DNA of 32,000 bases from Nitrosococcus oceani ATCC 19707 (GCF_000012805.1 NC_007484.1:420001-452000), one strand, 5' to 3'. Shown: positions 17,046-31,684, counted from the stretch's first letter. Program-made: numbers and translations. The notes: generated from the sequence alone by a model not told the origin.

Positions 17046-17194
17046 CTCCCCGGTTTCCCTCAACTCACTCTGCTTCTTCTTTCCTTAAGGTTGCTTCTGC
17101 CCTGGATAAAAAATCCACAGGTAGATTCCGTATTGTTATTTTCAACGGGCTGTCATCGGTCATGATGACCGATAAGCCGCCGCGATAGGTTCTT

Positions 17195-17292
17195 TCCCCA
17201 GGACGGTTAAAGTTTGCTGGTAAAGAGACGAAGGATATTTAGTGGATGATTTTCCAAACAATGTGCAGGCGCATTTGCCTGGGAATAAATTG
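17195..17292 (+). pseudogene. Deletion remnant of the 72-aa first-cassette ORF that is intact at 28074..28292
   Basis: 17199..17236 aligns with 28070..28107. 17234..17281 aligns with 28131..28179. 17282..17292 aligns with 28292..28302. The two intervening blocks are missing. Residual peptide similarity: VDDFPNNVQAHLPG versus VDNILTNIQANLPE. Confidence 0.45.
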
Positions 17293-17452
17293 TTCGCGCC
17301 GCTGTGCGGCGCGAATCGGGGAGTTGACTACGCCAAACGGTTGCCTGCGCCGCTTCGCGTCGCGAACAACCGTTCGACTGGCAGAACCTCCTGCATCATC
17401 AGATGCCGTGCGCCTATGTATGCAGGAGAACCCGCCTGTCAACTCCCCGATT
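17293..17452 (+). repeat. Cassette 5' leader element, copy 1 (full)
   Basis: Begins at the TT of 'GTTCGCG'. Contains a 10-bp GC hairpin (TTCGCGCCGC-tgt-GCGGCGCGAA) and 15-bp terminal inverted repeats: AATCGGGGAGTTGAC at 17314..17328 and GTCAACTCCCCGATT at 17438..17452. Two internal hairpins are AACGGTTG/CAACCGTT and CTCCTGCAT/ATGCAGGAG. Ends 17 nt before ATG 17470. Confidence 0.9.
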
Positions 17453-17469
17453 AACTGTCAGGAGACACC

Positions 17470-17808
17470 ATGAAGCATTGGGTATTTGTATTAATCTTTT
17501 TAGTTGCACCATTAGCTCATGCTGACCTAATGGTGTCTTTTATAGACGAATCGAGACTGCCGTACGATTTTTCTCCAAGTAACTACGATAATTCTTCAAG
17601 CAACTATGACAACTCTGTCAGCAACTACGATAACTCACCAAGCAATTACGACAATAGTTTTTCGAATTATGATAATGGTGCCAATGGCGAGAATCGCCTT
17701 TTGATGAAAGAAGGCTCAAAACTCTATCGAGTTGGTTATTACGTCAGAGCAGACAATGGCGTTACAAACTTTTTTCCATATCGGGCAAGCGTGCTTTCTA
17801 CAATCTAA
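17470..17808 (+). CDS. Secreted protein with five tandem heptad repeats (SNYDNSx); apparently frameshifted at a T6 run
   Basis: ORF track, 112 aa. Signal peptide 'MKHWVFVLIFLVAPLAHA' and 21-nt tandem repeats encoding SNYDNS(S/V/P/F). A second frame continues from 17772 to TAA 17931..17933, right at the next attC. Confidence 0.7.
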   Translation: MKHWVFVLIFLVAPLAHADLMVSFIDESRLPYDFSPSNYDNSSSNYDNSVSNYDNSPSNYDNSFSNYDNGANGENRLLMKEGSKLYRVGYYVRADNGVTNFFPYRASVLSTI

Positions 17809-17940
17809 AGAAAGGTCTCGGAGTGTTTTATGGTAAAGAGGGATTTTTCTATGGTGTCTTAGCCCGTGTAGAGAACGAGTATCAATTAGTCCTTACCGAG
17901 GTGGGGCAAAAAACACTATTTATGGCTCAGTAATGAAAAC

Positions 17941-18025
17941 AGTTAACAAGGCCATCAAATTCGCTCCCTACGGTCGCCGGACGCTCGCAAGCTTGCGCCG
18001 TTTATGGCGGCATTACGTGTTTGGC
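17941..18025 (+). other. attC-like recombination site (array A, site 1)
   Basis: Left box AGTTAAC at 17941..17947 and GTT-containing right box at 18019..18025. The internal 'attcgctccctacggtcgcc' is homologous to the core of the site at 19915..19980. Confidence 0.5.
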
Positions 18026-18317
18026 ACTGAAGTATCGCTGCCAATCAAAAGTCGCCACTTTGCAACGACAGGTCTGGCGTCATCGCCGTTGTCTCGGATG
18101 TTTGAGAGTCGAAACCATCATTGATTCGGCGAGCGCAGCTGAACGTGGTCCTATCAACAGTATTGGCAAGGCAGCTCGGCCAGGTTGTGCCGGGTTCGTT
18201 GGGTGGTAAGCATGGCGTTGTCACGCCGCTGAGGCGGAAATAAAGTTGGTGGTTGCTTCGCAGAAATTTGTTTTGGATTGAGTCATCAGAGAAAGTGCAC
18301 TTTGTCTAATTTTTTTC

Positions 18318-18347
18318 ACGTAACAAGGCAGGGCTGCGGACGCGCTA
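18318..18347 (+). other. Truncated attC-like site ending an ORF-less cassette (18020..18347)
   Basis: Left box ACGTAAC plus left arm 'aaggcagggctgcggac', related to the 'gttgcagcggac' arms at 29747 and 31024. There is no matching right arm. It is joined directly to leader copy 2. Confidence 0.4.
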
Positions 18348-18507
18348 TCGCGCGCCGCTGCGCGGCGCGAATCGGGGAGTTGACTACGCCAAACGGTTGC
18401 CTGCGCCGCTACGCGTCGCGAACAACCGTTCGACTGGCAGAACCTCCTGCATAATCAAATGCCGCACATCTATCATCCAGGAGAACCCGCCCGTCAACTC
18501 CCCGATT
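18348..18507 (+). repeat. Cassette 5' leader element, copy 2 (full)
   Basis: Same architecture as copy 1. TIRs at 18370..18384 and 18493..18507. Ends 31 nt before ATG 18539. Confidence 0.9.
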
Positions 18508-18538
18508 ATGTGAAGAAATGGAGTAAACAAGGAATATC

Positions 18539-19903
18539 ATGAGAAATAGATTAATTACCATAGGGACTTTAATTGTAGTCTTATCAGGTTGTATGGCAAA
18601 TCAACCTAAAGTAAGCGGTACCCCAACTAAGAAAATACAATCGCAAAATCAAATCGAACCAGCACAACCAGAGATAGAAACAAAAAGAACTTATAATGAT
18701 GATGGCAGTGTAAAAAATATACAATATTCAAAAAATGGGAAGGAAATTGAAAAATTCACATTTAGTTATTACCCATCAGGGGCAATAAAAATAAAGCTTA
18801 GAACCGTTAATGATATTTTAAATGGACAATCAGAAGCATACTTTGAAGATGGGACAGTGTCAGAAAATGCAAACTATGTGAATGGCTTGCATTACGGAAA
18901 GTTTGAGAATTTTCATGAAAACGGGAAGCTCAGAAAGTCTGGAACTTACAAAAATGACAAGTTGAATGGAACTGTTAAAACGTACAACAAGCTAGGAAAC
19001 ATACTGTCTCGGGTTATTTATACAGATGGAGTTGAAGGAATATCAATCTATTATGGATATAAAGATAACAACTTAGAGTGGGAAAAAAAATACAAGAATA
19101 AAACCCTGGTGCAAAGTAAAAAATATTATCTAAATGGGAATGTAGAACTCAAAGCAGGCATCAAAAATGGTGAAATAAATGGATTTTTGGAAGAATATTA
19201 TAACAACGGAAATATTAAGAAGAAAACAACCTACAAAGATGGTAAGAAAACAGGTCTAGAACTAGGCTATTTTAAAAATGGCGAACTATCGTGGGAAACT
19301 AATCTTATCGAAGGAAGAATAGATGGCATTTATAAAGAGTATTATGAAAATGGTGCTCTTAAGCTTATACAAAACTACACTAAGGATGAGCCAAATGGAC
19401 TAAAAAAAAGGTATTTTGATAATGGAAAGCCTGAATATGAGGCAGTAATAAAAAATGGGAAGGTAAACGGTGTTTATAAAGAATATTTTGAGTCTGGTGG
19501 TATTAAGTTTACAAAGAACTATAAAAATGGAGAGATGGTTGGGGAAGGGAAAGGTTATTATCAAAATGGCAATCTAAATTGGTTAGTAACTTATAAAAAC
19601 GGAAAACTTTTCACTGATAAATCTTATACAAAAACAGGTAAAATAAGTGCAGACCTAACCTACAAAGATGGAAAGAAGACTGGCATTGAAAGAGATTATT
19701 TTGAAAAGGGAAATTTAAGCTGGGAAACATGGTTCAAAAATGGGAAAAGAACAAAAGCTAAACAATATTACCAAGGCGGTAATTTAGCTAAAGAAATAGA
19801 TTTCAAGGATGGTAAGGCAATCAAAGGTTTTCAGTACACGTATGAAGGTAAGAAAACAGAAATGACTAATGCCCATTTCCATAATTTAGGATATGAGTAT
19901 TAG
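18539..19903 (+). CDS. Lipoprotein built of MORN-variant (YwqK-like) repeats
   Basis: ORF track, 454 aa. Lipobox 'VVLSGC'. At least 15 repeats of the type 'Y..NGxLK.E..YKNGK.NG..K.YY.NG'. Visibly very AT-rich relative to its flanks. Confidence 0.85.
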   Translation: MRNRLITIGTLIVVLSGCMANQPKVSGTPTKKIQSQNQIEPAQPEIETKRTYNDDGSVKNIQYSKNGKEIEKFTFSYYPSGAIKIKLRTVNDILNGQSEAYFEDGTVSENANYVNGLHYGKFENFHENGKLRKSGTYKNDKLNGTVKTYNKLGNILSRVIYTDGVEGISIYYGYKDNNLEWEKKYKNKTLVQSKKYYLNGNVELKAGIKNGEINGFLEEYYNNGNIKKKTTYKDGKKTGLELGYFKNGELSWETNLIEGRIDGIYKEYYENGALKLIQNYTKDEPNGLKKRYFDNGKPEYEAVIKNGKVNGVYKEYFESGGIKFTKNYKNGEMVGEGKGYYQNGNLNWLVTYKNGKLFTDKSYTKTGKISADLTYKDGKKTGIERDYFEKGNLSWETWFKNGKRTKAKQYYQGGNLAKEIDFKDGKAIKGFQYTYEGKKTEMTNAHFHNLGYEY

Positions 19904-19914
19904 TGCAATTAATC

Positions 19915-19980
19915 ACATAACAATCAGCTGCACAGGATTCACTCCCTTCGGTCGCTCCCCTGTGAGCTTGGGCGTTCGCG
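19915..19980 (+). other. attC-like recombination site (array A)
   Basis: Left box ACATAAC. Arms AATCAGCTGCACAGG and CCTGTG-AGCTTGG with one extrahelical base. Right box GCG|TTCGCG. Starts 12 nt after the MORN gene stop. Confidence 0.7.
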
Positions 19981-20051
19981 CCGCTGCGCGGCGCGAATCG
20001 GGGAGTTGACTGCGCCAAACGATTGCCTGCGCCGCTACGCGTCGCAAACAA
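19975..20051 (+). repeat. Cassette 5' leader element, copy 3 (5' half only)
   Basis: Matches the other copies from TTCGCGCC through '...gcgtcgcaaacaa'. It then diverges into an attC-like tail. Confidence 0.8.
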
Positions 20052-20112
20052 GTGAATCAAGCCGACCGTCAAACCGCTACGCGGGCTGCCGCTCAACGTC
20101 AACCTGTTAGAA
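20044..20112 (+). other. attC-like site fused to the half leader (ORF-less mini-cassette)
   Basis: Starts at the leader-internal 'GCAAAC AAG..' box. It contains 'tcaagccgac', as in classical attC left arms, and ends in GTTAGAA at 20106..20112. Confidence 0.4.
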
Positions 20113-20143
20113 TTTAGCCGGAAAAGGAGAATATGCGTTTGCG

Positions 20144-20548
20144 ATGAATAAAATAATTGTAACTGCAATGATTATAATTGCCGGATGGTACGGTAGCTTG
20201 CTCTATAGGCAAGGTGAATTGACAGTTATACGAGAATTTGCAAACGGATTCGGATCTAATGAGCCAGTAAAGTGCATGACGAAAGATGGCCGAGTTTTAT
20301 ATGGCGACATTCCACAAGGCATTATATGTGAGAAAGTAGAGCCGGTTGAGGGCTCATTGACAGTTCAAAAATTTTCTACTCTTAAAAGAGATGACCATAA
20401 AGCTTCAGGGTTTAGATGCGATGGACGGCAATACTGCAGTCAGATGAAGTCAAGAGCTGAGGCAGAATTTTTTGCTAGGAATTGTTCAAATACTAAAATG
20501 GATGGAGATCACGATGGCGTTCCATGTGAGAATGATTCCCAGTTTTAA
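20144..20548 (+). CDS. Membrane-anchored Excalibur (calcium-binding) domain protein
   Basis: ORF track, 134 aa. N-terminal TM 'IIVTAMIIIAGWYGSLL'. C-terminal 'CSQMKSRAEAEFFARNCSNTKMDGDHDGVPCEN' matches the Excalibur pattern. Confidence 0.75.
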   Translation: MNKIIVTAMIIIAGWYGSLLYRQGELTVIREFANGFGSNEPVKCMTKDGRVLYGDIPQGIICEKVEPVEGSLTVQKFSTLKRDDHKASGFRCDGRQYCSQMKSRAEAEFFARNCSNTKMDGDHDGVPCENDSQF

Positions 20549-20580
20549 GCCGGCATGGTGTGCTTACATTCTAACATTGG

Positions 20581-20631
20581 CACTAACAGAGGCCGGCTTT
20601 TCCGCTACGATCCAAAGCCGTCCCGTTATGC
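20581..20631 (+). other. Short attC-like recombination site
   Basis: Left box CACTAAC, central stem CGGCTTT/AAAGCCG and right box GTTATGC at 20625..20631. Confidence 0.55.
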
Positions 20632-20638
20632 TGACCGC

Positions 20639-20713
20639 TCGCGCCGCTCGGCCTGCATCATCAGATGCCGCACATCTATTATCCAGGAGAACCCGCACGT
20701 CAACTCCCCGATT
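20639..20713 (+). repeat. Cassette 5' leader element, copy 4 (internally deleted)
   Basis: Retains 'tcgcgccgct', joined to the 3' part '(c)ctgcatcatcagatgccgcacatctattatccaggagaacccgcacGTCAACTCCCCGATT'. The left TIR is missing. Confidence 0.8.
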
Positions 20714-20763
20714 AGTCTGGTAAATACACTTTTCAGCTATAAAAAAATATACTGGAGAATAAT

Positions 20764-21813
20764 ATGAGCAATAAGAGCTATGTCATGTGGAACAATAAAG
20801 GCGGCGTTGGAAAAAGTACAATTACTTTCCATATTGCCTCTGTTTACGCTGAAAATAACCCTGATAGGGATGTTGTCGTTATTGATATGTGTCCTCAAGC
20901 TAATTCATCATCAATGCTTATGGGCGGTGGAAAAGATAGTGAATTAAAATTGCAGCAATTGATTTCGATGAATGAGCCTCAAACTATAGTTGGTTATATT
21001 ACTGAAGCAACACTTAATGGAGATGCCGATATTGCAAAATACTCCACGAAATTAAGAGAAGTTAACCCCAACCTCTCGAACAACATGTATCTTATATCTG
21101 GTGATGGGAATTTAGAATTGATTGCTCCCCTGCTTTCTGAAAGAGCAGAAGCAACACCACTATCTGCCGCAGATAACCCCTGGATTAAGATTCATTCAAT
21201 CGTAAGATTTTTAACTAAAAAGCCAATTAATTCCGAACGACCCTGTACATTTTTTATAGATACTAATCCTAGCTTTTCAATTTACACTCAGCTTGCGATA
21301 GTTGGCGGAGAAAAACTATTAGTTCCCATTAACGCCGATGATTCATCGATATTTGCGATCACTGGTTTATTTAACTTAATATGGGGTACCGCAATAATTC
21401 ATCCTGTTTATGGAAAATATACATTTGCCTCTAAGGCTAAAAGCCATGGGTTAGTGCTACCAAAGATATCATTCCTTTTGGGTAACCGCTTTACACAAAA
21501 AAAGGGTGCTGCCCACGCTTTTAAAGCGCTTTCAAATGAAGCTATTGATAAAATGTATTCTGAATACAAAAAGAATCCAGATAAATTTGAAGATCCTGTT
21601 GAGCATATAAATAACCTTCAAGATTTCGAATCCGCATATAGTATTGAGTTAAGAGACTTTAATAGTGCGGGAGTAGTAGCGGCGAATCAAGGTCTTCCGC
21701 TTAGCAAGATGGATAAGCATACATATGAGGTCTATGGTGAAAGGATTCAAGTAGCAAAAGAGCAGAGGGAAAAATGCAGGGAAGCAATTGAATTGTTGGT
21801 TACAAAGCTTTGA
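20764..21813 (+). CDS. Orphan ParA/MinD-superfamily P-loop ATPase with long C-terminal extension
   Basis: ORF track, 349 aa. Deviant Walker A 'NNKGGVGKSTI' and 'VIDMCPQANSS'. No ParB-like partner is present. Confidence 0.8.
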   Translation: MSNKSYVMWNNKGGVGKSTITFHIASVYAENNPDRDVVVIDMCPQANSSSMLMGGGKDSELKLQQLISMNEPQTIVGYITEATLNGDADIAKYSTKLREVNPNLSNNMYLISGDGNLELIAPLLSERAEATPLSAADNPWIKIHSIVRFLTKKPINSERPCTFFIDTNPSFSIYTQLAIVGGEKLLVPINADDSSIFAITGLFNLIWGTAIIHPVYGKYTFASKAKSHGLVLPKISFLLGNRFTQKKGAAHAFKALSNEAIDKMYSEYKKNPDKFEDPVEHINNLQDFESAYSIELRDFNSAGVVAANQGLPLSKMDKHTYEVYGERIQVAKEQREKCREAIELLVTKL

Positions 21814-21817
21814 ACTG

Positions 21818-21848
21818 GCATAACAAACGGCTCCACGCAGACGCCCTA
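21818..21848 (+). other. Truncated attC-like site (left half only)
   Basis: Left box GCATAAC plus the left arm, then an abrupt junction with the last ~41 nt of a leader element. Confidence 0.45.
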
Positions 21849-21889
21849 CGCCTATGTATGCAGGAGAACCCGCCTGTCAGTTCCCCGAT
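21849..21889 (+). repeat. Cassette 5' leader element, copy 5 (3' remnant)
   Basis: 'cgcctatgtatgcaggagaacccgcctgtcagttccccgat' matches the 3' end of copy 1. Confidence 0.75.
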
Positions 21890-21898
21890 GACAACTTA

Positions 21899-22186
21899 CT
21901 AGCGCTGTTTGATATTGCGATAAAAATTTTCGTGTGAGCTTAGGGCCATCAATTCGAGAACGAGAGCACCATCATCAAAGCTGTATCCAAGCAAAATCAG
22001 GTGCTTGTTCATTTTAAATTTGTATCCACGTAAGAATGAGAGGTCTCCCTTTTTTTGCTCCCCAAGAGCGGGATCGGCCATCAGATCCTTGACGGCTGTG
22101 TCGAGATCTTTTTTCTGGTTAGCTTTAAGCTTTTTTACTGCTTTCTTAAACGTTGGGGACTGTAAGACACGGGTGGCTTTAGCCAA
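21899..22186 (-). CDS. RelE/ParE-family type II toxin
   Basis: ORF track, 95 aa. N-terminal 'F.KAVKKL...QKK.L...V..L..DP' and overall size fit RelE/ParE-type toxins. It overlaps the upstream antitoxin gene by 8 nt. Confidence 0.7.
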   Translation of the reverse strand: MAKATRVLQSPTFKKAVKKLKANQKKDLDTAVKDLMADPALGEQKKGDLSFLRGYKFKMNKHLILLGYSFDDGALVLELMALSSHENFYRNIKQR

Positions 22187-22400
22187 AATCGTAGGTCTCT
22201 AGCTTCCCGGCTTCTCGTTCTGCTTTTGCAATAATAGCCTGCTTGACAAACTCATAGGGCAAATCGGGATTGTCTTCCATCATTTCACCGATTTTTGCCC
22301 AATGCTCAATTTGTTTGGGAGGCGTGCGATTAAGCGCTTTGGCTATAATGGTTGCTCTTTCAATAAGATGTTGATCTAAGCGTATGCTATTAGTGGCCAT
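22179..22400 (-). CDS. ParD-like type II antitoxin
   Basis: ORF track, 73 aa. '...RTPPKQIEHWAKIGEMMEDNPDLPYEF' resembles the ParD_like antitoxin family. It sits upstream of and overlaps the toxin gene. Confidence 0.65.
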   Translation of the reverse strand: MATNSIRLDQHLIERATIIAKALNRTPPKQIEHWAKIGEMMEDNPDLPYEFVKQAIIAKAEREAGKLETYDFG

Positions 22401-22449
22401 TTTGATGCCCTCCTAAGGATTTTCTTAATTGTAGCAAAACGCCACAAAT

Positions 22450-22505
22450 GAGGCAAATTGCAGCGGGACGCTAGATTGCAATCGTAGAAAAGCGGATGTC
22501 CCTTT
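22450..22505 (+). other. Degenerate attC-like site at the right edge of array A
   Basis: 'aaattgcagcgggac' at 22455..22469 is homologous to the left arms 'aaatcgttgcagcggac' at 29747 and 31021. Only 'gtccc' of the right arm is recognisable. Confidence 0.35.
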
Positions 22506-22511
22506 TTTATA

Positions 22512-23507
22512 TCAGACTAGGTTTGGCAGGGCGAAGGAGTCGGAAACCGGTTCAATCTGGAAGATTCGGTTCGGTAGGTGGGTTTTGAACGTCTTTTCCT
22601 CGCCGTCCGCGGAGCGTTCGCGCAGCCGGAAAGTGTTGCAATCCGCGATTAGGTGGGTTCCAAAAGGCGTTTCAATGGCATCCTGCACCCATTTGATCGG
22701 AAAGTACTGGTTGGTTGCCTGAATAGTTTTCCTGGACTTGAAGTTCCGATCGAAAAGGATGACCTGGCCTTTGCGTGAATTGGAGATTATGTAGCCCTTT
22801 GAATGGGGCCGGATATGATGGGGGCCGCTGAGTCCCTCGGCGACCACCTCGGTTTTCAATGTTTCGCGGTCGATGCGCGCGAGTGCGCCCTGGTAAAACA
22901 GCACGGTGATGATCTTCGCGGGATCGTAGGGATCGATGATCGCCGAATTCATATGCGTCGTCTGCAAGCGTCCAGGGTAGCACTTCAGACGGTGATCGAT
23001 CGTTTTGTCGATGACCCGCATGCCGCCGCCGTGCGCATGATCGTATCCGTGCTCAGTGGCCCACCAGGACCACAGGATGTTCCCCTGAAAATCGACTTCC
23101 AGAATTGCATCGACGCCGCTCGAGGTGACCAGCAAACCGTTTTCGGTGCGCCGGATCGAGCGTAGTTGCGAGAACAACGGGCTGCGAATTTCGAGGTCAA
23201 TCTGGCCCTGCTCGTTCAGCCGGACGATGTGCTCGTTACCTGGAGTCCCGTCCTCGGGACAAGGCAGTCCGGTAAGAAAATACAGGCCTTCGCCTTCGAC
23301 GAATTGGCTCCCGAAAGGTTTGTCGCAATAGATTTCACCGATCGAGCGGATTCCACCGAAGCTTCCGTCGTGTTCGAGCAACTGGATCTTTCCGCCCATC
23401 GACCCCTTAAAAACATCGTTGGAGCGGTCCTCCCCGCGGATAATCCGGCTTAGCCTGAATTTTACGTAGTCCCAATTAGTTTGCGGATAAGAAACGACAA
23501 ATTTCAT
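22512..23507 (-). CDS. Hypothetical protein, possibly a beta-propeller/arylsulfotransferase-like fold
   Basis: The ORF track frame is 22512..23552. I prefer the ATG at 23507 (MKFVVSYPQ...). It is a long clean ORF with host-like GC. The family assignment rests on weak recollection only. Confidence 0.55.
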   Translation of the reverse strand: MKFVVSYPQTNWDYVKFRLSRIIRGEDRSNDVFKGSMGGKIQLLEHDGSFGGIRSIGEIYCDKPFGSQFVEGEGLYFLTGLPCPEDGTPGNEHIVRLNEQGQIDLEIRSPLFSQLRSIRRTENGLLVTSSGVDAILEVDFQGNILWSWWATEHGYDHAHGGGMRVIDKTIDHRLKCYPGRLQTTHMNSAIIDPYDPAKIITVLFYQGALARIDRETLKTEVVAEGLSGPHHIRPHSKGYIISNSRKGQVILFDRNFKSRKTIQATNQYFPIKWVQDAIETPFGTHLIADCNTFRLRERSADGEEKTFKTHLPNRIFQIEPVSDSFALPNLV

Positions 23508-24151
23508 TTTCAAGTATATCCTGTGGTGAAGATAGGTGGCTATGATAGCCAAGTAGTTTTTTGTTTAGCGCAAAGCAGCTGCTGGCTTTCAGCGACTCTT
23601 TGGCAGGGTATGCCGCCGCTCCTAGGGGCGAAGGTTTTTGCCATAAATCTTAGTTAATTCTTTGCTAAAATTATTGCATAGCATGCCACCCTCAGAGGGC
23701 TTATCTTTAAATAAGAGCCTCTAATATTCATATATTCGGCTAAATTTGTAGCTTTTCCCCGGCGCGGTTTAATGGGAAGGCGAGCAGAATAGCGGAAATT
23801 TTGGGAGAGGGTGTTCGTTCAGGGAGTGTCAGCGGTATTGTGTCTGCCGGATTTTGTGCTATCCAGCAGGTACTTAAGTATGTAGAAGAGGTTCGGTGGG
23901 GAGAAAGGTTCCCAACCTTCTTTTTCCAAAGATGTTCCCTCTGAAGGGGTAGAAGCCGATGATGTGCGCGGCCAAGATGTTGGGGAACACTGTCTATACT
24001 AAATTTCCTTGGATTGAGGATATGGAACCCATGATAGCAAAGAATGGGGAGCGGGCGACTAACCGTACCCGGCATCCGGCGATTTCCCTAGTAGGGCATG
24101 AAGCTGTTAAGTAAAATCCAAGATAATCTACGAAAATTGGAATGTAAGAGC

Positions 24152-25306
24152 ATGTTACTGGCACATAAGATTGAACTAAGGCCCAAAGCAAGCCAAGCCG
24201 AATATCTGAACAAGTCTTGCGGTTCAAGGCGGCACTGCTATAACCAACTACTGGAGCACTTCTCCAAGCCGGATAATAAGTGGAGCAAGGCGGCGGCCTA
24301 CCAGTACTATATAAAAGTCATCCGTCCTGCGTATCCCTGGTATAACGAAGTTTCCAGTCGCGTGACCCGCAACGCCATTGATGACCTGGATGATGCTTTC
24401 AAGCACTTTTTTCGGCGGGTGAAAAAGGGAGGGAAGCCCGGTTTTCCAAAGTTTAAGAAAAAAGACATCAACGATAGCTTCGCCCTACGTGAGAAAACCA
24501 AGTTTGAGGTCAAGGGCCGCAAGCTGAGGATTGAAAAACTCAAAACACTTATCCCCATGCGCCAGCGGCTGCGCTTCGAGGGAACGCCCAAGCAAGTGGC
24601 GATGAGTAAGCAAGCCGGTAAGTATTTCGCCTCCGTTCTGGTAGATACGACAGACTATAAGGACTATAGCCAAAACCGATCCCCCTCCGTAGGCGTGGAT
24701 TTTGGCGTCAAGTCGCTGGCCGTGACTTCTGACAATGAAGTGATTCCTTCCAACAACAAGTTAAAAAAGAGCCTAAAGAAACTCAAGCATTTAAGTAGAA
24801 GTCTATCCAGAAAGCGCAAAGGCTCCAACCGTCGAGCGATAGCCAAGCAGCGGTTAGCCAAATTGCACTATCGGATAGCTCAACAAAGGAAAGCCGTGCT
24901 CCATGAACTGAGCCATAGTTTAACGGCAAACTATGATCGAATCGCCATAGAAGATCTCAATGTTAAAGGGATGGTTCGGAACCGTACACTAGCCCGGTCC
25001 ATCGCCGATGCGGGCTTCGGGATGCTGCGCCAGTTGATTGAATACAAAGCCTTTCTTCGTGGCTGCACGGTTGAGCTGGTAGATAGGTTCTTCCCCTCTA
25101 GCCGGATGTGTTCAGGCTGTGGACAGCTTCACGACATCACGCTCGCGGATAGAGCATTGGCCTGTGATTGTGGATTAACCATAGACCGCGATCTCAATGC
25201 CGCGATTAATTTAAACCGGTATCGTCGGGACACGCTCAAGCCAGACGTAAAACGCACGCAAGAGCCAAGTAAGACCGCGCTAGCGGCATCGGTGTGGACG
25301 GTGTGA
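24152..25306 (+). CDS. tnpB: IS605 OrfB/IS1341-type TnpB (solo, no adjacent tnpA)
   Basis: The ORF track frame is 24098..25306. The likely start is ATG 24152 (MLLAHKIELRPKASQAEYL...). Zinc finger: 'CSGCGQLHDITLADRALACDCGLTIDRDLNAAINL'. Confidence 0.85.
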   Translation: MLLAHKIELRPKASQAEYLNKSCGSRRHCYNQLLEHFSKPDNKWSKAAAYQYYIKVIRPAYPWYNEVSSRVTRNAIDDLDDAFKHFFRRVKKGGKPGFPKFKKKDINDSFALREKTKFEVKGRKLRIEKLKTLIPMRQRLRFEGTPKQVAMSKQAGKYFASVLVDTTDYKDYSQNRSPSVGVDFGVKSLAVTSDNEVIPSNNKLKKSLKKLKHLSRSLSRKRKGSNRRAIAKQRLAKLHYRIAQQRKAVLHELSHSLTANYDRIAIEDLNVKGMVRNRTLARSIADAGFGMLRQLIEYKAFLRGCTVELVDRFFPSSRMCSGCGQLHDITLADRALACDCGLTIDRDLNAAINLNRYRRDTLKPDVKRTQEPSKTALAASVWTV

Positions 25307-26892
25307 ATAAGCCTAGGTTTTCAGAGATCATCCTAGGCTTTTATGAGCGGCGAGTAAGCTTCGCTTTATGGCTACTAGCTGCCGCACTGCTTAGCGCCTG
25401 TGCGATTAATCCGGTAACAGGCGAGCGGGAGCTGTCGCTGGTCTCCGAAACCCAGGAAATTCAGATGGGGGAGGAGAATTATTTGACGATGCGGCAGATG
25501 CAGGGAGGGGATTATACGGCTGACCCCGCACTCACAGCCTATGTGAGCCAGGTGGGTCAGCGTCTGGCGGCCGTGAGTGATCGTTCGCTGCCCTATGAGT
25601 TCTCGGTTATTAACGATTCCACCCCTAATGCGTGGGCCCTGCCGGGTGGTAAAATTGCTCTCAACCGGGGTTTATTGACGGAGCTAAACAATGAAGCTGA
25701 GCTGGCGGCGGTGCTAGGCCATGAGATCGTCCATGCCGCAGCCGGTCATAGCGCCCAAGGCATGGAGCGTGATTTATTATTGAAGGGGGCGGTGTTAGGT
25801 TCAGTGCTGGCAACGGGAGTGAGTGAATACACGCCCCTGGTGTTGGGCGGGGCGCAAGCGGCGGCGCAACTGGTCAATCGGAAATATAGCCGCGATGCGG
25901 AGCGGGAAGCGGATCTTTATGGCATGCGCTATATGTCCCGCGCCGGCTATGATCCTTGGGCAGCGGTGAGCTTGCAGGAAACTTTCGTTCGTCTCTCCGA
26001 GGGACAGCAGGAAAATTGGCTTTCGGGGTTATTGGCAAGCCATCCTCCTTCCCTGGAACGGGTGGAGGCCAATGAGATGACTGCCCGTACTTTGCCTGCC
26101 GGAGGTGAGTTAGGGGCGGAACGCTACCAAGCCAAGCTTGCTCCCCTGAGGCAGGTAGAAACGGCCTATGCTGCTTATGATCAAGGCCGTAAAGCACTTC
26201 AAGAGGGCAACCTGGAGCAGGCGCTGAGTTTAGCGGAGCGGGCCATTACTGAAGAGCCCCGGGAAGCCCTGTTCTATGGCTTGCGCGGTGATGTCTATCT
26301 GGCAAGGAAACGCTATCAGGAAGCTCTGGCCGATTATAATCGGGCTATTAAGCGCAATGATCATTTTTTTTATTTTTATAATCAGCGGGGTTTGGTAAAC
26401 AAAGCATTAGGCCATTCAGAAAAGGCGCGTCAAGATCTGCAGCAGAGTATAGCCCTTTTACCCACGGAAAGCGCTAATAAAGCCTTAGGTGATTTAGCCT
26501 TGACGCAAGGAGATCGGCAAGGCGCCATGACCTACTACCAAAAGGCAGCCGCCTCCCAAACCCCTTTGGGCCTTGAAGCAAGACGCGCCTTGGTTTACCT
26601 GGATTTGCCTAATAATCCCCAAAAATATCTAGCGGCTCAGGTCAAGTTAAATCGGCGTGGCTATCTCGTTGTCCGGGTGACTAATCAGGCACCGCTCCCC
26701 GTCCGCGATATTGGCATTGAAGTGCGTTATCTGGATTCCCAGGGGCACGTCCAGTCCCATAAGCAAGCGTTTCAAGGAATTCTTGCCGCAGGTCAGACCG
26801 CGCGCCTCAAGACGAATCTGGGGCCGCTTTCAGATCCACGTGCGCTCGAACGGATCGAGGCTAAGGTGATCCAGGCCCGAATTGCCAATTAA
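25294..26892 (+). CDS. M48-family zinc metalloprotease lipoprotein with C-terminal TPR domain (BepA-like)
   Basis: ORF track, 532 aa. Lipobox 'LLSAC', zinc motif 'HEIVHAAAGH' and TPR-like repeats after residue ~290. The only in-frame canonical starts (GTG 25294 and 25303) lie inside the last codons of tnpB. Confidence 0.8.
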   Translation: MDGVNKPRFSEIILGFYERRVSFALWLLAAALLSACAINPVTGERELSLVSETQEIQMGEENYLTMRQMQGGDYTADPALTAYVSQVGQRLAAVSDRSLPYEFSVINDSTPNAWALPGGKIALNRGLLTELNNEAELAAVLGHEIVHAAAGHSAQGMERDLLLKGAVLGSVLATGVSEYTPLVLGGAQAAAQLVNRKYSRDAEREADLYGMRYMSRAGYDPWAAVSLQETFVRLSEGQQENWLSGLLASHPPSLERVEANEMTARTLPAGGELGAERYQAKLAPLRQVETAYAAYDQGRKALQEGNLEQALSLAERAITEEPREALFYGLRGDVYLARKRYQEALADYNRAIKRNDHFFYFYNQRGLVNKALGHSEKARQDLQQSIALLPTESANKALGDLALTQGDRQGAMTYYQKAAASQTPLGLEARRALVYLDLPNNPQKYLAAQVKLNRRGYLVVRVTNQAPLPVRDIGIEVRYLDSQGHVQSHKQAFQGILAAGQTARLKTNLGPLSDPRALERIEAKVIQARIAN

Positions 26893-26916
26893 CCATCATA
26901 CTTAATTAAGCGATTA

Positions 26917-27942
26917 ATGATGAAACAAACAACGTATGAATATGCTGCTTCCGCCGGGAGGGCAGAGGCACAGGAGGCGGAGGAGACTTCACCTCTGGAT
27001 CAGGAACTCCTGGCTTTAAAACAACTTGAACAGCGCGTTGGCGCCTTCCACTTTAAGCGGCGCCTGGGCACCGAAGGGAACTATAAAACCCATGCCTCTT
27101 CCCAGGAGCAGGATTCCTTTCATATCGAGAATTGGTATTCCATTCATTTCTTTATTCGCACCACCTTGCGATGTTTGGCGCTCCACGGGCGAGGTAAACG
27201 CAATGCCTTGGCCCTTCGGGTCCGCCATAATGATATTCCTATAAAGGGTCTGTCACCCTCTTTTGAGGGATATACGCTATTACATTTAAGCGATCTCCAC
27301 CTGGACATGAACGGGCAGCTTCCCCAGGTGCTGATTGAGCAAGTTCAGAAGGTAAAATATGATATATGTGTCATCACCGGGGATTTACGGGCGAAGACAT
27401 ACGGGCCTTATCAGCCAGCCATAGAGGCCATGGCGCAGCTGCGGACTCATCTTGAAGCACCAGTCTACGGCGTGCTTGGTAACCATGATAGCCTTCGCAT
27501 GGTCCCTGGGCTGGAAGCCATGGGCGTGCGGATGCTGCTTAACGAAGCGGTACCTATCGAGCGGGATGGTGAGGTCGGTTTCTATCTCGCCGGGGTTGAC
27601 GATCCTCATTATTATCGTGCGGATAATCCGGAAAAAGCCTGCGCGCAAATTCCGGAATCCGTTCCCCGAATTCTGCTAGCCCATTCCCCGGAAATCTATA
27701 AACGTGCCGCCCATTGTGACTTTGATGTCATGTTCTGTGGGCACACCCATGGTGGCCAGATCTGCTTGCCGGGGGGTATCCCCGTCATGGTCAATGCTCG
27801 CTGCCCCCGCCGGATCTGCGCCGGGCCTTGGCGGTACCGCCAGATGCAAGGCTACACATCGGTGGGATCGGGGGTTTCTATTGTCGATGTCCGTTTCAAC
27901 TGCCCACCTGAGATCACCCTGCATCGGCTTCGCTGCACCTGA
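26917..27942 (+). CDS. Calcineurin-like metallophosphoesterase (YkuE-type)
   Basis: ORF track, 341 aa; motifs 'LHLSDLHLD', 'ITGDL', 'GNHD', 'GHTHGGQ'. Confidence 0.85.
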   Translation: MMKQTTYEYAASAGRAEAQEAEETSPLDQELLALKQLEQRVGAFHFKRRLGTEGNYKTHASSQEQDSFHIENWYSIHFFIRTTLRCLALHGRGKRNALALRVRHNDIPIKGLSPSFEGYTLLHLSDLHLDMNGQLPQVLIEQVQKVKYDICVITGDLRAKTYGPYQPAIEAMAQLRTHLEAPVYGVLGNHDSLRMVPGLEAMGVRMLLNEAVPIERDGEVGFYLAGVDDPHYYRADNPEKACAQIPESVPRILLAHSPEIYKRAAHCDFDVMFCGHTHGGQICLPGGIPVMVNARCPRRICAGPWRYRQMQGYTSVGSGVSIVDVRFNCPPEITLHRLRCT

Positions 27943-28073
27943 AAAGCCGTTAAAAATCCCCCTTCGAGTCAAACTCCGAAGTACCTGCTTATCCAATCTC
28001 TGCGTCAAACATGCCTCGTTGCCATTCCCCTTAATTTTCTTTAATCCGCTTCTGTTCTTTTTCTTTTCTCAGG

Positions 28074-28292
28074 ATGATTAAAGTTTGCCAGCAAGAAGAC
28101 GAACTTACTGAAAGCTGGTCTACTGTTTTTGATATCTCTGTGGATAATATTCTAACGAATATACAGGCGAACTTGCCTGAATTTATAGCTAATATCAGGT
28201 TATCAAGGCTAATACATGTTTTGGGTATTATCAGGGCAAAAGTGCCTGAAAAAGCCGGCAATATCAATTTATCAGGGCGCGTATTTACTTGA
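28074..28292 (+). CDS. Hypothetical 72-aa protein, first unit of array B
   Basis: ORF track. A deleted paralogue at 17195..17292 shows conservative amino-acid substitutions. The stop lies inside the following attC-like palindrome. Confidence 0.4.
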   Translation: MIKVCQQEDELTESWSTVFDISVDNILTNIQANLPEFIANIRLSRLIHVLGIIRAKVPEKAGNINLSGRVFT

Positions 28293-28308
28293 GAATAAAT
28301 TGTTCGCG
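28258..28308 (+). other. attC-like palindrome preceding leader copy 6
   Basis: CAATTTAT...ATAAATTG arms followed by G|TTCGCG. The left box is poor. Confidence 0.4.
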
Positions 28309-28461
28309 CCGCTGCGCGGCGCGAATCGGGGAGTTGACTGCGCCAAACGGCCGCCCGCGCCGCTACGCGTTGCGAACAACCGTTCGACTGGCAGAACCCC
28401 CTGCATCATCAGATGCCCCACATCTATTACCCAGGAGAACCCGCCCGTCAACTCCCCGATT
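28303..28461 (+). repeat. Cassette 5' leader element, copy 6 (full)
   Basis: TIRs at 28324..28338 and 28447..28461. Ends 14 nt before ATG 28476. I count about 6 differences from copy 7 by eye. Confidence 0.9.
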
Positions 28462-28475
28462 ATAAGGCTTAAAAA

Positions 28476-29093
28476 ATGCAGTTGCCAGATTTTATAAAAG
28501 ATGTCGTGCTGCTCCTGCTAGGTGGAGTCGGGACTGCTGTGTGGTTTTTCTGGCGTCGCAGGACAGAACAAGCGCCAGTATTTGAAAACATCCACAAAGC
28601 CGAAAAACTTCTCTCGCTTCGAAAAGAACTCGACAACACCAACTACACCTTTGAGGATCTAAAGAGCCTTGAAGATGCGCTGATGGAGCGGGCAGATGTT
28701 GCGAAAGTACTAAGCATCAGCTACGAAGAAGAGGCTAAACAAGTTCGTGAAATTGAGATGAGTACTGCGATGACACAGGCAGAAATGAATATTGTTGCCG
28801 GAAATGCCTATCAAAGCGCCGAGCGTAAACTTGATGCAATACTAGAACAAATCAAGGAGTTCTTGTCTCCTGAAGAATCTGCTCTGTTAGATGAAGCTAA
28901 TCAAGCCTGGCGTACCTACCAGAAAAGCCATGCTGACTTCTCAGCCTCACAATACGAGGGGGGCAGTATTCAGCCGCTCATTTATGCCTCAACAATGGAG
29001 ACGGTCACCGTTGCACGAATAGTTGAATTGGAAGCAGAGCTTAAGTTCATGAAAGACACGCGGGTGCCAAATGCCGAGCAAGACGCCTTATAA
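28476..29093 (+). CDS. Membrane-anchored DUF1311 (LprI-like) domain protein
   Basis: ORF track, 205 aa. N-terminal TM 'VVLLLLGGVGTAVWFFW'. C-terminal 'ANQAWRTYQKSHADFSASQYEGGSIQPLIYASTMETVTVARIVELE' fits the DUF1311 pattern. Confidence 0.7.
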   Translation: MQLPDFIKDVVLLLLGGVGTAVWFFWRRRTEQAPVFENIHKAEKLLSLRKELDNTNYTFEDLKSLEDALMERADVAKVLSISYEEEAKQVREIEMSTAMTQAEMNIVAGNAYQSAERKLDAILEQIKEFLSPEESALLDEANQAWRTYQKSHADFSASQYEGGSIQPLIYASTMETVTVARIVELEAELKFMKDTRVPNAEQDAL

Positions 29094-29162
29094 CAAGTCA
29101 CTCCTGCTGACCGTCTCACTCGCTGGCGCTCGTTCGACGGTAGCAGAGTTCAATCGTTGGGC
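29088..29162 (+). other. attC recombination site
   Basis: The left box TTATAAC contains the stop codon. Arms are CTGCTGACCGTC and GACGGTAGCAG with an extrahelical G. The right box GTTGGGC is a perfect GTTRRRY. Confidence 0.8.
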
Positions 29163-29180
29163 GTCACTGGGAGCTATTCG

Positions 29181-29738
29181 GTGAATGAATCGAAGTCGAC
29201 AACCGAGGTTGCTATTTCCGCATTCATACATGAGCTTTCGCGAATGCCCGCGACTCTTTCGGGAGAAGATTCATCGCTAGATTCAGTTTGGGAAGAGATC
29301 AAAGCTCAGGTTCAGAATGAAGAATCGATCTATTGGGATGCTTATGTCGAAACGATGTCCGTCTTGGTTGAGGCTTATGTCGAAGGTCTGAGCGCCGATG
29401 TGTTGGAAAATCTCCGCGATGAATTGTATCTCGACGATGACGGCGACGTTGGCGAGGGATTGTTCGAGGCGTTACTCGATAGGGCCGGGGAAGAGGACGT
29501 TGCATACGAACCATTCGATTTCGAGTTTTTCTACTACGATGTGATGGGGACCACAACATACGGCCAGGTTCTAAAGCGAACCAGCATTTGGACAGCGCAA
29601 GTTCGCGTTTGGAGTCAAGTCTTACCAAAAGGTGGCGAAATTGGGTTGATATCTACTTCTGCCATTGAGTGTGAAATTTCAGAAGATGTGTTCAATTTTG
29701 CAAAGAGGGCTGCATGGCCCAAGCTTTCTGCGAAGTGA
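29181..29738 (+). CDS. Highly acidic hypothetical protein
   Basis: The ORF track frame is 29157..29738. The TTG at 29157 lies in the attC right box, so GTG 29181 or ATG 29244 is more plausible. Asp/Glu-rich ('LYLDDDGDVGEGLFEALLDRAGEEDVAYEPFDFEFFYYD'). Confidence 0.6.
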   Translation: MNESKSTTEVAISAFIHELSRMPATLSGEDSSLDSVWEEIKAQVQNEESIYWDAYVETMSVLVEAYVEGLSADVLENLRDELYLDDDGDVGEGLFEALLDRAGEEDVAYEPFDFEFFYYDVMGTTTYGQVLKRTSIWTAQVRVWSQVLPKGGEIGLISTSAIECEISEDVFNFAKRAAWPKLSAK

Positions 29739-29739
29739 C

Positions 29740-29836
29740 GCTCAACAAATCGTTGCAGCGGACGTTTGGCCCACCACCTGCTTTGCTGCCGCAAAGCAGG
29801 CGTCGCCTCAAACGCCGCTGAACTCAGGCGTTCGCG
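29740..29836 (+). other. attC recombination site
   Basis: Left box GCTCAAC, arms AAATCGTTGCAGCGGAC and GCCGCTGAACTCAGG, right box GCG|TTCGCG. The overall layout resembles classical attC sites such as aadA-type. Confidence 0.75.
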
Positions 29837-29989
29837 CCGCTGCGCGGCGCGAATCGGGGAGTTAACTGCGCCAAACGGCTGCCCGCGCCGCTACGCGTCG
29901 CGAACAACCGTTCGACTGGCAGAACCTCCTGCATAATCAGATGCCCCACATCTATTATCCAGGAGAACCCGCCCGTCAACTCCCCGATT
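29831..29989 (+). repeat. Cassette 5' leader element, copy 7 (full)
   Basis: TIRs at 29852..29866 (one mismatch, TTAAC) and 29975..29989. Ends 25 nt before ATG 30015. Confidence 0.9.
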
Positions 29990-30014
29990 ATGTCTCTCGG
30001 CTAGTGGAGGTGGG

Positions 30015-31019: not shown

Positions 31020-31061
31020 CAAATCGTTGCAGCGGACAAGCCGCTGAATGCGGCGTTAGAG
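31014..31061 (+). other. Short attC recombination site
   Basis: The left box AAATAAC contains the stop codon. Arms are AAATCGTTGCAGCGGAC and GCCGCTGAATGCGG. The right box is GTTAGAG. Confidence 0.7.
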
Positions 31062-31069
31062 AAGTGAAT

Positions 31070-31612: not shown

Positions 31613-31684
31613 CAATTCGCATCAGTACGCTGTCTTCGGACGCCAGACGTCCCTGACGGGCCGCCGCTGTGCTCCGCGTTATAT
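31607..31684 (+). other. attC recombination site
   Basis: The left box CTCTAAC contains the stop codon. The right box is GTTATAT at 31678..31684. A GC-rich imperfect palindrome lies between them. Confidence 0.6.

Follow-up and report, generated by a model that had tools for sequence, protein, structure and literature searches.

A short repeat unit in the cassette arrays of Nitrosococcus oceani, here called E, is likely to be a gene-less integron cassette that is separate from the cassettes downstream of it and is moved by integron-type recombination. E is a paralogous cassette and probably a selfish one. Gene-less cassettes are already known from Vibrio, and E is an unusual variant of them. 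Its anatomy, its exact junctions, its restriction to arrays in the sequence sampled and the differences between strains are observed directly.

E is 157-158 nt long, runs from TTCGCG to CCCCGA and is placed precisely at the G|TT crossover, which bears out the initial annotation of a discrete unit starting at the integron crossover. The window, namely the whole stretch of 32,000 nt from N. oceani ATCC 19707 that was analysed, holds seven of the at least 19 copies and remnants found over four cassette arrays of the species. Three others lie just past the end of the window and nine in two further arrays, and the divergent strain L018 carries additional copies. All 19 copies lie within arrays and share the orientation of the cassettes (19/19 in both respects), and a profile search found no E outside arrays in the ~100 kb examined. 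E occupies about one slot in three, and many copies are truncated. The copies in the window are as follows.

17293-17450, + strand: E copy c1, full, 158 nt (TTCGCG-to-CCCCGA limits), first unit of array A
18348-18505, + strand: E copy c2, near full, 5' end fused to a truncated upstream attC, first 2-3 nt altered
19975-20051, + strand: E copy c3, the 5' 77 nt of E
20639-20711, + strand: E copy c4, 5'-hairpin remnant joined to the 3' 60 nt by an internal deletion
21805-21889, + strand: E copy c5, 3' remnant directly after the ParA-like ORF (nhmmer profile match)
28303-28459, + strand: E copy c6, full, 157 nt, first unit of array B
29831-29987, + strand: E copy c7, full, 157 nt

All seven copies claimed in the initial annotation are present to within 2 nt, but two final T residues that it counted as E are part of the next cassette, and the c5 remnant, given there as 21849-21889, extends further in the profile search. 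The family as a whole is larger than these seven and includes the other arrays and L018. The rule of insertion at a crossover does not extend to c4, which lies 13 nt within the cassette starting at 20626, away from any crossover. The contrast in base composition is real (63-66% GC in E versus 32-48% in the ORFs after E), and these ORFs have no relation to E, as had been stated. Copies c1 and c6 belong to different sequence subtypes. The variants d2 and e3 lack the left inverted repeat and keep the attC-like part; they have one deletion and a G>A change in common, yet their flanking cassettes differ.

Nine E copies begin at G|TT after a complete attC or a leader, and the 3' junction reads ...CCCCGA|TT wherever the 3' end is intact. 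The crossover had been assigned to the attC right box; this is correct for c3 and c7, which follow an attC, but c1 and c6 are preceded by a conserved attI-like leader ending GAATAAATTG|TT. The flanks of E copies have only (C)G|TT(A) in common, which fits recognition of the target as a structure rather than as a sequence. The leaders and sites next to E in the window are listed below.

17046-17292, + strand: leader A, attI-like, start of array A, homologous to leaders B and C; ends GAATAAATTG, crossover after G17292
17938-17947, + strand: inverse core (R'') in the attC of the cassette starting at 17451; AACAGTTAAC matches the reverse complement of G+TTAACTGT(C) at 9/10 positions
19912-19974, + strand: canonical attC of the MORN cassette, R'' ATCACATAAC; ends at G19974, directly before c3
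20052-20106, + strand: right half of an attC that belonged to a lost AAA_13 cassette; identity with the attC that follows AAA_13 in L018 is 89.6%; ends at G20106
27943-28302, + strand: leader B, attI-like, start of array B
29737-29830, + strand: canonical attC of the 193-aa cassette, R'' GACGCTCAAC (9/10 pairing to the start of its cassette, 29157); last base G29830, immediately followed by c7

Leader A carries TTATCARGGC repeats, leader C is the leader of the third array, and a 72-codon ORF in leader B (28074-28292) has no homologue outside N. oceani. No integron integrase gene was found in the window or at any other N. oceani locus examined.

The cassettes that follow E are intact. Of the 15 E copies whose 3' end is intact, 10 are followed by 9 nt that match, at 9-10 of 10 positions, the reverse complement of the inverse core in the next ORF's attC, over distances of 367-1698 nt. 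The background at other [GA]TT positions is 12%, and the probability of at least 10 of 15 is 1.2e-6. After c1 these 9 nt are TTAACTGTC, with 9/10 pairing to the inverse core 17938-17947; TTATGTGAA after c2 pairs 9/10 with R'' at 19912-19921, TTATAAGGC after c6 10/10 with R'' at 29085-29094 and TTATGTCTC after c7 9/10 with R'' at 31011-31020. The Excalibur cassette starts at 20107, and TTAGAATTT pairs 9/10 with R'' at 20566. Because its first 9 nt match its own inverse core, a cassette after E is complete without E. The downstream cassettes thus keep complete 5' ends right after E, and the term cassette-leader module does not apply.

E could nevertheless be kept as a cis-acting portable leader on the mRNA of the next cassette, serving as a promoter or in transcript stability or translation tuning, whatever enzyme moves it. 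E is always in ORF orientation with a start codon 7-50 nt downstream, its plus-strand RNA is still strongly structured, its ORF-proximal 3' part survives in 16 of the 19 copies, and gene-less cassettes of Vibrio often have promoters (PMC11014356). However, orientation and position are automatic consequences of cassette insertion, and the copies decay by deletion, three of them (c3, d5 and e4) having lost the 3' part. The first cassette of array B in L018 has no E. A consensus scan detected no sigma-70-type promoter inside any E copy on either strand, and promoter-like sites across the region number 20 versus 20.6 in shuffles. The lack of such promoters and the systematically better pairing of the antisense strand count against the expression leader proposed earlier, and a cis-acting role appears quite improbable.

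Comparison with L018 reveals turnover of cassettes. The cassette content of L018 differs from that of the window, whereas the flanks are 96.7-98.5% identical. Homology runs precisely as far as the c1 orthologue's 3' end, beyond which the cassettes are different ones. Coding cassettes of L018, too, have ends of the form ...CCCGA|TT. The L018 orthologue of c3 is a full E followed by an AAA_13 cassette, and therefore the window carries a deletion at this site. The orthologue of c5 starts G|TTCGAC, which is the L'' box of E. Among clonal strains, no E copy differs in presence or absence. Judged from the sequences, the turnover of cassettes between strains implies that a recombinase has been active recently.

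The same comparison bears on the idea that E is part of the integron platform, a right-hand attI whose internal copies would be relics of platform duplication. E comes first after leaders A, B and C, and array A of L018 contains a fourth leader and a DUF1722 gene fragment upstream of an E, as such duplication would leave behind. However, the end of leader B in L018 is joined straight to a normal cassette, most E copies follow the ordinary attC of unrelated cassettes, and c1 and c6 are of different subtypes. A platform origin is therefore extremely unlikely.

The layout of E resembles that of a recombination site. The 3' ~95 nt of E (positions ~65-157) together with its own first 7 nt constitute an attC-like site in the order R'' CGCGAAC, unpaired spacer AACC, L'' GTT(C)GAC with one bulged base, a hairpin that is the variable part of the site, L' GTCAAC, spacer TCCCCG and R' A|TTCGCG. 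This site spans ~93-100 nt between R'' and the crossover, attC sites in general ranging from ~57 to 141 nt, and its spacing agrees with the canonical attC sites in those arrays. The corresponding parts of c7 are given here.

29831-29853, + strand: 5' hairpin TTCGCGCCGC-TGC-GCGGCGCGAA (module 1), in which what remains of E's own R' pairs to a copy resembling R''
29897-29916, + strand: left half of the attC-like site, with R'' GTCGCGAAC, spacer AACC and L'' GTTCGAC; R'' pairs 9/10 with E's first bases
29975-29987, + strand: right half of the attC-like site, with L' GTCAAC, spacer TCCCCG and the A before the crossover; it is also the right terminal inverted repeat

E thereby obeys the cassette rule itself: in c1, c7 and c9 its own start, G+TTCGCGCCG, pairs 9/10 with CGTCGCGAAC 65 nt downstream. 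R'' ends GCGAAC, of which AAC is invariant in 15/15 aligned copies and the adjacent bases are variable. The RYYY part of the R'' consensus RYYYAAC is unmatched in E (CGCG), and E departs from the R' consensus GTTRRRY with crossover G|TT in that the base 5' of the crossover is A, not the conserved G. A|TT also ends the attC of four coding cassettes, which read ...CAAC followed by T(C/T)CCCG or TTCGACCCG and then A|TT, and among the A|TT-type sites there is one case in which the start of the next cassette shows 9/10 pairing to its own R''. A|TT thus looks like a local, native site type of N. oceani.

The predicted bottom-strand DNA fold of the permuted segment (c1, c7 and c9) consists of an R box of 6-7 bp, a 7/5 nt unpaired spacer, an L box in which GTTGAC pairs with GTC(G)AAC, one G being bulged, and the hairpin. 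The other ~56 nt of E (positions 8-63) are complementary to both halves of the site, and therefore a single strand has an alternative, more stable fold with a terminal hairpin and a three-way junction. The initial annotation described this architecture; its 10-bp GC hairpin and two internal hairpins are confirmed, and its 15-bp terminal inverted repeats are perfect in c1, c2 and c6 but have one mismatch in c7. The attC-like site has its R and L boxes buried in this most stable predicted fold, whose advantage with DNA parameters is ~35 kcal/mol.

E folds well past chance, with z = -6.9 for plus-strand RNA, -9.8 for minus-strand RNA and -10.9 for minus-strand DNA. RNA folding energies are -92 to -109 kcal/mol on the minus strand versus -74 to -87 on the plus strand, and the DNA values are -48 to -59 versus -44 to -52. 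In the alignment, 95.1% of cells are paired, and four pairs are changed on both sides. The minus strand has 130 G.U cells versus 23 would-be G.U cells on the plus strand, and at least eight wobble positions are fixed on the minus strand and none on the plus strand. The pairing of E favours the bottom (antisense) strand over the mRNA strand.

This wobble asymmetry could equally point to an antisense RNA, in which case E would encode a small minus-strand transcript with the three-way junction as the product, silencing, for example, all E-tagged cassette transcripts. The stability of the minus-strand RNA agrees with this, and that strand has a terminator-like site in c1 and c6, where CAATTTATTC comes after the terminal GC hairpin. 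However, the scan found no promoter-like site on the minus strand inside any copy, the T-rich tail occurs only where E adjoins a leader, and Rfam gave no match. Wobble pairs are tolerated in folded single-stranded DNA too, and it is the bottom strand that integrons use. An antisense RNA is very unlikely.

In database searches, no Rfam family, IS end or intron matched E. Over the whole window, Rfam yielded no match at gathering scores and only chance-level matches at permissive settings (best E-value 0.49). Exact-pattern scans of 185,579 species genomes, JGI metagenomes, viral contigs and plasmids found neither a further E copy nor a parent element, and a transposase-bearing parent was found neither by these scans nor by blastn against plasmids. 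Group IIC-attC introns are ~2 kb long, encode a reverse transcriptase, have a GUGYG 5' end and insert in attC; E has only 157 nt, no ORF and no intron ends on either strand, and this class was rejected.

E might instead be a non-autonomous transposable element, either a MITE or a solo RNA module of IS110/IS1111 type, with the transposase supplied in trans and the attC or attI crossover as the target; TT on each side would then be the core dinucleotide or a target duplication. The 15-bp inverted repeats and the better structure of one strand, as expected of an RNA, are in line with this. There are also precedents. ISKpn4, ISPst6 and ISPa25 are IS1111-attC elements, mobile DNA that like E lands specifically in attC structures, and they target one attC end via a structured seekRNA (PMC11187229). 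The solo ssr9 module of ISPpu9 is, like E, a small structured non-coding unit that spreads alone, with an IS110 transposase and REP targets (PMC12288879). IS110-family transposase genes are reported in strain AFC132 only, not in the strains carrying these copies (PMC7285500).

The ends and targets of E argue against a transposable element. IS1111-family elements encode a DEDD transposase, have subterminal repeats extended by 7 bp and 3 bp and use a seek or bridge RNA to read a conserved target (PMC11187229), and both they and ssr9 need the transposase and an RNA matching a conserved target. In contrast, the window contains no such transposase gene near E, the inverted repeats are set back from the two ends by ~21 and 0-2 nt, and the targets are variable in sequence, the shared (C)G|TT(A) being too little for an RNA-guided match. 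As for a MITE, the left repeat lies 21 nt inside, the TT duplication is ambiguous, and neither a parent in the databases scanned nor copies outside arrays in the ~100 kb examined came to light. The variants without the left repeat keep precise junctions at two different loci, and the layout of E is that of an attC; it is also placed after attI-like leaders. We regard a transposable element as distinctly unlikely and return to E as a gene-less cassette.

The VCR of Vibrio cholerae is an attC of ~129 bp with a structured variable part that is recombined as a folded bottom strand. The site in E resembles it in being long, in having R and L boxes, an unpaired spacer and an extrahelical base, and in the high similarity of copies within the species. 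Unlike VCRs, which follow genes, the E site stands alone with a masking complement and has ATT in place of GTT. The view that nothing comparable had been described does not hold. Paralogous non-coding cassettes of Vibrio, debated as selfish or regulatory, reach up to 45 copies in V. vulnificus and are lineage-restricted and conserved (Boucher et al. 2006, PMC1382264). E is likewise gene-free, multicopy within arrays, confined to one lineage and well conserved. E differs from those cassettes in its far smaller total size of 157 nt, in a "cargo" that consists solely of an antisense version of its recombination site and in crossing over at A|TT rather than G|TT; its arrays, moreover, lie without an adjacent integrase in a chemolithotrophic gammaproteobacterium. 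E also resembles the gene-less cassettes studied in Vibrionaceae superintegrons in being ORF-less, in lying between gene cassettes and in its possible effects on neighbours, but differs from the promoter-active ones in having no promoter-like site in the consensus scan (Blanco et al. 2024, PMC11014356). When cassettes insert at non-att sites in a genome, the reported core is GWT and G is kept (Loot et al., bioRxiv 10.1101/2022.09.11.507474). The N. oceani arrays resemble CALIN/SALIN arrays in lying beside housekeeping genes with no integrase nearby, and integrases tolerate a minimal core. However, three to four N. oceani arrays start with one homologous leader, not at random genome sites.

The enzyme, the strand exchange, the mobility of E and its selfish rather than useful nature are what we infer. 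An integron-type tyrosine recombinase would cut the folded bottom strand of E after 5'-..GCGCGAA and exchange it with the bottom strand of an attI-like leader or a resident attC, cut after 5'-..AA before C. Replication would resolve the product and place E exactly between G and TT, with G|TTCGCG as the left and CCCCGA|TT as the right junction. Either rounds of excision and reinsertion or copying may then have brought E into about one slot in three, with later deletions eroding many copies. Against this reading stand the absence of an integrase gene from the loci examined, the A on the 5' side of the crossover, the buried R and L boxes of the most stable fold, the constancy of E copies among the clonal strains, the many truncated copies, the off-crossover position of c4 and the wobble asymmetry, which an antisense RNA would explain equally well. 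Downstream cassettes and E alike follow the cassette rule, and the location and orientation of E follow automatically from cassette insertion. Of the earlier hypotheses, a single-stranded DNA hairpin element targeting the crossover and a recombination site both pointed in the right direction.

A further reading, which we put forward tentatively and consider rather doubtful, is that E is a self-masking "naked attC", a selfish minicircle containing nothing but a recombination site and an antisense copy of that site. The three-way junction of the bottom strand would be a conformational switch between a hidden and an exposed site, thereby setting the rate of movement, and E would be a natural donor of attC sites to ORFs. 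The site of E ends up serving neighbouring ORFs in copies c8, c10, d1 and d4, and the short ...CCCGA|TT sites of coding cassettes are a further example of an E-type site serving ORFs. If this reading is true, E would provide a concrete route by which genes gain or replace the recombination site that makes them cassettes.

The 157-158-nt repeat TTCGCG...CCCCGA (E) is most likely a gene-less integron cassette mobilised by an integron-type recombinase. A repeat search of the window finds four full and several partial copies (c1 to c7) where the initial annotation had placed them. Reading of the sequence and alignment of the copies bear out the architecture described there, which consists of a GC hairpin (TTCGCGCCGC-TGC-GCGGCGCGAA), 15-bp inverted repeats (AATCGGGGAGTTGAC and GTCAACTCCCCGATT) and two internal hairpins, and the hairpin and three-way junction are indeed the most stable predicted fold of E. 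Compared with shuffled sequence, a full copy folds as RNA with z = -6.9 on the plus strand and -9.8 on the minus strand, and the minus strand folds as DNA with z = -10.9. As had also been noted, E is GC-rich (63-66% GC in the copies versus 32-48% in the ORFs downstream); its open frames are by-products of this GC richness and are rejected as genes. E occupies roughly one in three cassette slots.

The window contains two cassette arrays, each headed by a homologous non-coding leader with TTATCARGGC repeats and the end GAATAAATTG|TT, where the bar marks the crossover point. These leaders appear to be attI-like. The arrays and the leaders, including those of two other N. oceani loci (L012, which holds array C, and L018, from a divergent strain), are as follows.

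Window, from 17293: array A, after the DUF1722 gene
Window, from 28303: array B, after the metallophosphatase gene, extending 10 kb beyond the window end
Window 17046-17292: attI-like leader
Window 27943-28302: attI-like leader
L012 19402-19740: attI-like leader
L018 about 14360-14810: attI-like leader

The three to four homologous leaders each carry the TTATCARGGC repeats and small hairpins, and none adjoins an integrase gene. No integrase is found in the window or near any array. One leader copy of L018 lies within array A, next to a 3' fragment duplicated from the DUF1722 gene. The 72-codon ORF of leader B has no homologue.

Because gene callers sometimes place a false ORF across E, its translation was used as a query against protein collections. 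Of the five proteins obtained, three are from named N. oceani, and unnamed Logan assemblies and a metagenome set supply one each. Two more arrays, C and D, were reached through such false-ORF proteins and contain nine additional copies of E, and three further copies lie in array B just past the window end. The window proteins are identically encoded in several assemblies, whose accessions a genome paper ties to N. oceani (PMC7285500). A profile search finds no E outside the arrays in the window or in the other loci, and no E at all on a 12-kb contig from a related Nitrosococcus. Exact-pattern scans for the two inverted repeats separated by a gap, and for the left end, the middle and the right end of E, gave 0 matches in genome, metagenome and viral contig collections. 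Because N. oceani itself is absent or masked in the genome collection, these scans exclude exact matches in other species only and are uninformative on the genome-wide copy number of E in N. oceani. E has no blastn match among plasmids, and Rfam gives nothing at gathering scores over the whole window or with permissive settings over window 28200-30100.

The right part of E has the anatomy of an attC site. The first bases of E pair at 9 of 10 positions with CGTCGCGAAC, 65 nt downstream, with R'' (..GCGAAC), AACC, L'' GTTCGAC, a long hairpin, L' GTCAAC, TCCCCG and A|TT following in this order from that point. Order and spacing are those of an ordinary attC of the same arrays, such as ..CAAC AAATC GTTGCAGCGGAC ... 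GCCGCTGAAC TCAGGC G|TT. When the attC-like segment of c1, c7 and c9 (the last a copy past the window end) is taken alone, the predicted fold of bottom-strand DNA has an R box of 6-7 bp, an unpaired spacer and an L box with one bulged G, followed by the hairpin. The AAC of R'' is invariant in 15 of 15 aligned copies. E departs clearly from attC only once, in that A instead of G precedes the crossover, which gives a G.T pair on the bottom strand. Four protein-coding cassettes of N. oceani have a short attC that ends in ...CAAC, T(C/T)CCCG or TTCGACCCG, and A|TT, with the crossovers at these positions.

L018 2892: A|TT crossover of a coding cassette
L018 205: A|TT crossover of a coding cassette
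L018 15635: A|TT crossover of a coding cassette
L016 (another N. oceani locus) 975: A|TT crossover of a coding cassette

After one of them, the start of the next cassette pairs at 9 of 10 positions with its own inverse core. Judging from these four sequences, A|TT appears to be a native site type in N. oceani.

By an established rule, an integron cassette begins with bases (TTRRRY...) that can pair with the inverse core of its own attC (R'', ...RYYYAAC), since both come together in the circle. A search for attC sites that required complementarity of R'' and R' within the array found none, and an own-inverse-core test was used instead, in which the 9 nt after ...CCCCGA were taken and a reverse complement ending in AAC was sought downstream. 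For 10 of 15 E copies the best match is 9/10 or 10/10, top-scoring in each case and 367-1698 nt downstream, and those matches that were compared with ORF coordinates lie at the end of the next ORF. In one 10/10 pair the cassette start after E is TTATAAGGC and R'' is GCCTTATAAC; in a second they are TTAGGTTCA and TGAACCTAAC. Since 12% of the other [GA]TT positions of the window match likewise, the probability of at least 10 of 15 is 1.2e-6. The cassettes downstream of E are therefore complete, and E is an independent insertion placed precisely at the crossover point. On the left side, the junction G|TT is intact in nine copies, after a complete attC or a leader. The earlier suggestion of a cassette-leader module is thus not supported, because these cassettes have complete 5' ends without it.

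The left part of E is complementary to its own site. Positions 8-63 can pair with both halves of the attC-like site: GCGGCGCGAA with the first ten bases of E, AATCGGGGAGTTGAC with L', the spacer and the final A, and the stretch after AATCGGGGAGTTGAC with R'', the spacer and L''. With DNA parameters, the bottom strand of the whole E reaches about -58 kcal/mol, and its attC-like segment by itself about -22. RNA folding energies range from -92 to -109 kcal/mol for the minus strand and from -74 to -87 for the plus strand. G.U pairs account for 130 cells over 17 copies when the minus strand is read, whereas the plus strand would have 23, and the fixed wobble positions number at least 8 for the minus strand and 0 for the plus strand. 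In an alignment of 15 copies, 95.1% of cells are paired and four pairs are altered on both sides; the covariation score is reached by only 1 of 500 shuffles. If mutation acted alone, the plus-strand G>C skew would predict the opposite pairing bias. The strand-biased pairing fits folded bottom-strand DNA and antisense RNA alike. It is possible that E gives rise to an antisense RNA, but a promoter scan lists no promoter-like site within E on either strand. The same lack of a promoter, together with the complete 5' ends of the cassettes that follow, the antisense bias of the pairing and the decay of the copies, weakens the view that E is a leader acting in cis on the next cassette.

The L018 contig (GCA_000740735.1), whose flanking genes are 96.7-98.5% identical to those of the window, presumably represents strain AFC132, as judged from this identity. 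It has the same two platforms as the window and an almost completely different cassette content. Homology between the two spans the DUF1722 gene, leader A and an orthologue of c1 with an identical unusual TGT loop, and ends exactly at the 3' end of this orthologue, where a different cassette comes next. The orthologue lacks 51 nt between two GCGCGAA repeats, and the cassette that is left consists of attC only. Leader B of L018 abuts an ordinary cassette directly, ..ATCAATAG|TTATGTGTC, without E. This joint indicates that the leader end is a real crossover, and it contradicts the view that E is part of the integron platform. L018 also has a full E followed by an AAA_13 cassette, and the right half of the attC of this cassette corresponds to window 20052-20106. 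The half copy c3 is thus explained by a deletion in the window between an L018-type full E and the AAA_13 attC.

Copies in other arrays indicate which parts of E are needed. Both d2 and e3 lack the 5' hairpin (module 1) and the left inverted repeat, and have one deletion and a G>A change in common. Their neighbouring cassettes differ, and the left junction is a precise G|TT in both; at the right end d2 retains CCCCGA|TT and e3 is one T short. These variants imply that the inverted repeat is dispensable, with the attC-like part being retained. In six to eight copies (c2, c8, c10, d1, d4, e4), the 5' part of E is missing, and so is the right half of the attC upstream; in c8, c10, d1 and d4 the site of E now comes after the upstream ORF.

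The cassettes of the arrays (window 17451-32000, L001, L012, L016 and L018) are mostly of toxin-antitoxin and defence types, including ParDE, BrnTA, HicAB, VapBC, HigBA, two HEPN proteins, DUF4917, GmrSD, SEFIR/TIR, AAA_13, HNH-WYL and RelA_SpoT. The last cassette of array C (L012 7922-9880, minus strand) has genes for a 110-aa protein, a 361-aa RVT_1 reverse transcriptase and a 135-aa protein, with about 200 nt of GC-rich non-coding sequence upstream, and may serve defence as a retron-like or another RT-based system. This cassette follows copy d1, but many unrelated cassettes follow E elsewhere, and a retron reading of E is rejected. The plus strand of the window shows G>C skew across most of the sequence from about 12 kb onward, by which the top strand of the cassettes would be leading and the bottom strands of the attC sites would be located on the template of the leading strand; in large chromosomal integrons, attC bottom strands are reported on this template. 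Window 1213-9405, with CHAT/TPR genes, a DDE_3 fragment and an IS200/IS605 element (TnpA and TnpB, 7761-9293), has no counterpart in the related Nitrosococcus contig, where the flanking genes are adjacent, and is probably an island. Within it, three tandem 138-nt units of 74-78% identity (3034-3481) lie inside a 440-codon minus-strand ORF (2365-3687). A TnpB-only IS605-type element (window 24098-25306) lies between arrays A and B in both strains. The DUF1722/2-thiouracil desulfurase gene of AFC27 has about 505 bp extra (L006 14526-15032), absent from the window and the other clonal strains, so that the window represents a member of the clonal group other than AFC27.

Mobilisation of E as a cassette accords with its junctions, its anatomy and the differences between strains. 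An integron-type recombinase would exchange the bottom strand of E after ..GCGCGAA, and E would enter at leaders and attC sites. E may then have multiplied selfishly to about one slot in three, with decay afterwards. Integrases can act on arrays without an adjoining intI, and cassettes can be inserted at minimal GWT sites (bioRxiv 10.1101/2022.09.11.507474). There are precedents for a transposase-driven mini-element of the IS1111-attC or IS110 type (PMC11187229; PMC12288879), but this reading fits badly, because the flanks of the E copies have just (C)G|TT(A) in common, the end geometry differs, the searches described above reveal no parent element and IS110 transposases are reported in AFC132 only. 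E is also rejected as an IS200/IS605 end: repeat and E-profile searches find no similarity to it in the two such elements of the window, and paired subterminal hairpins of one kind are missing in E.

Vibrio arrays contain paralogous, lineage-restricted non-coding cassettes in up to 45 copies, proposed to be selfish or regulatory (Boucher et al., PMC1382264), and promoter-bearing gene-less cassettes have been tested (PMC11014356). E is alike in kind to the Vibrio cassettes, and its lineage is new. Unusual in E are its minimal size, a cargo comprising nothing but the complement to its recombination site, the A|TT crossover and wobble pairing specific to the bottom strand. In annotation, repeats of this type risk being taken for cassette leaders or MITEs. 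As test material, E offers a substrate of 157 nt and natural deletion variants that either keep or lack the mask, and the two strains add arrays that differ from each other. E bears on two questions of integron biology, the origin of cassettes and the spread of attC sites. With a recombination site only and about a third of the slots, it would be a clean natural case of an integron parasite. It appears that a crossover in which A replaces the conserved G is used in nature, and E suggests that a recombination site can carry its own masking sequence.
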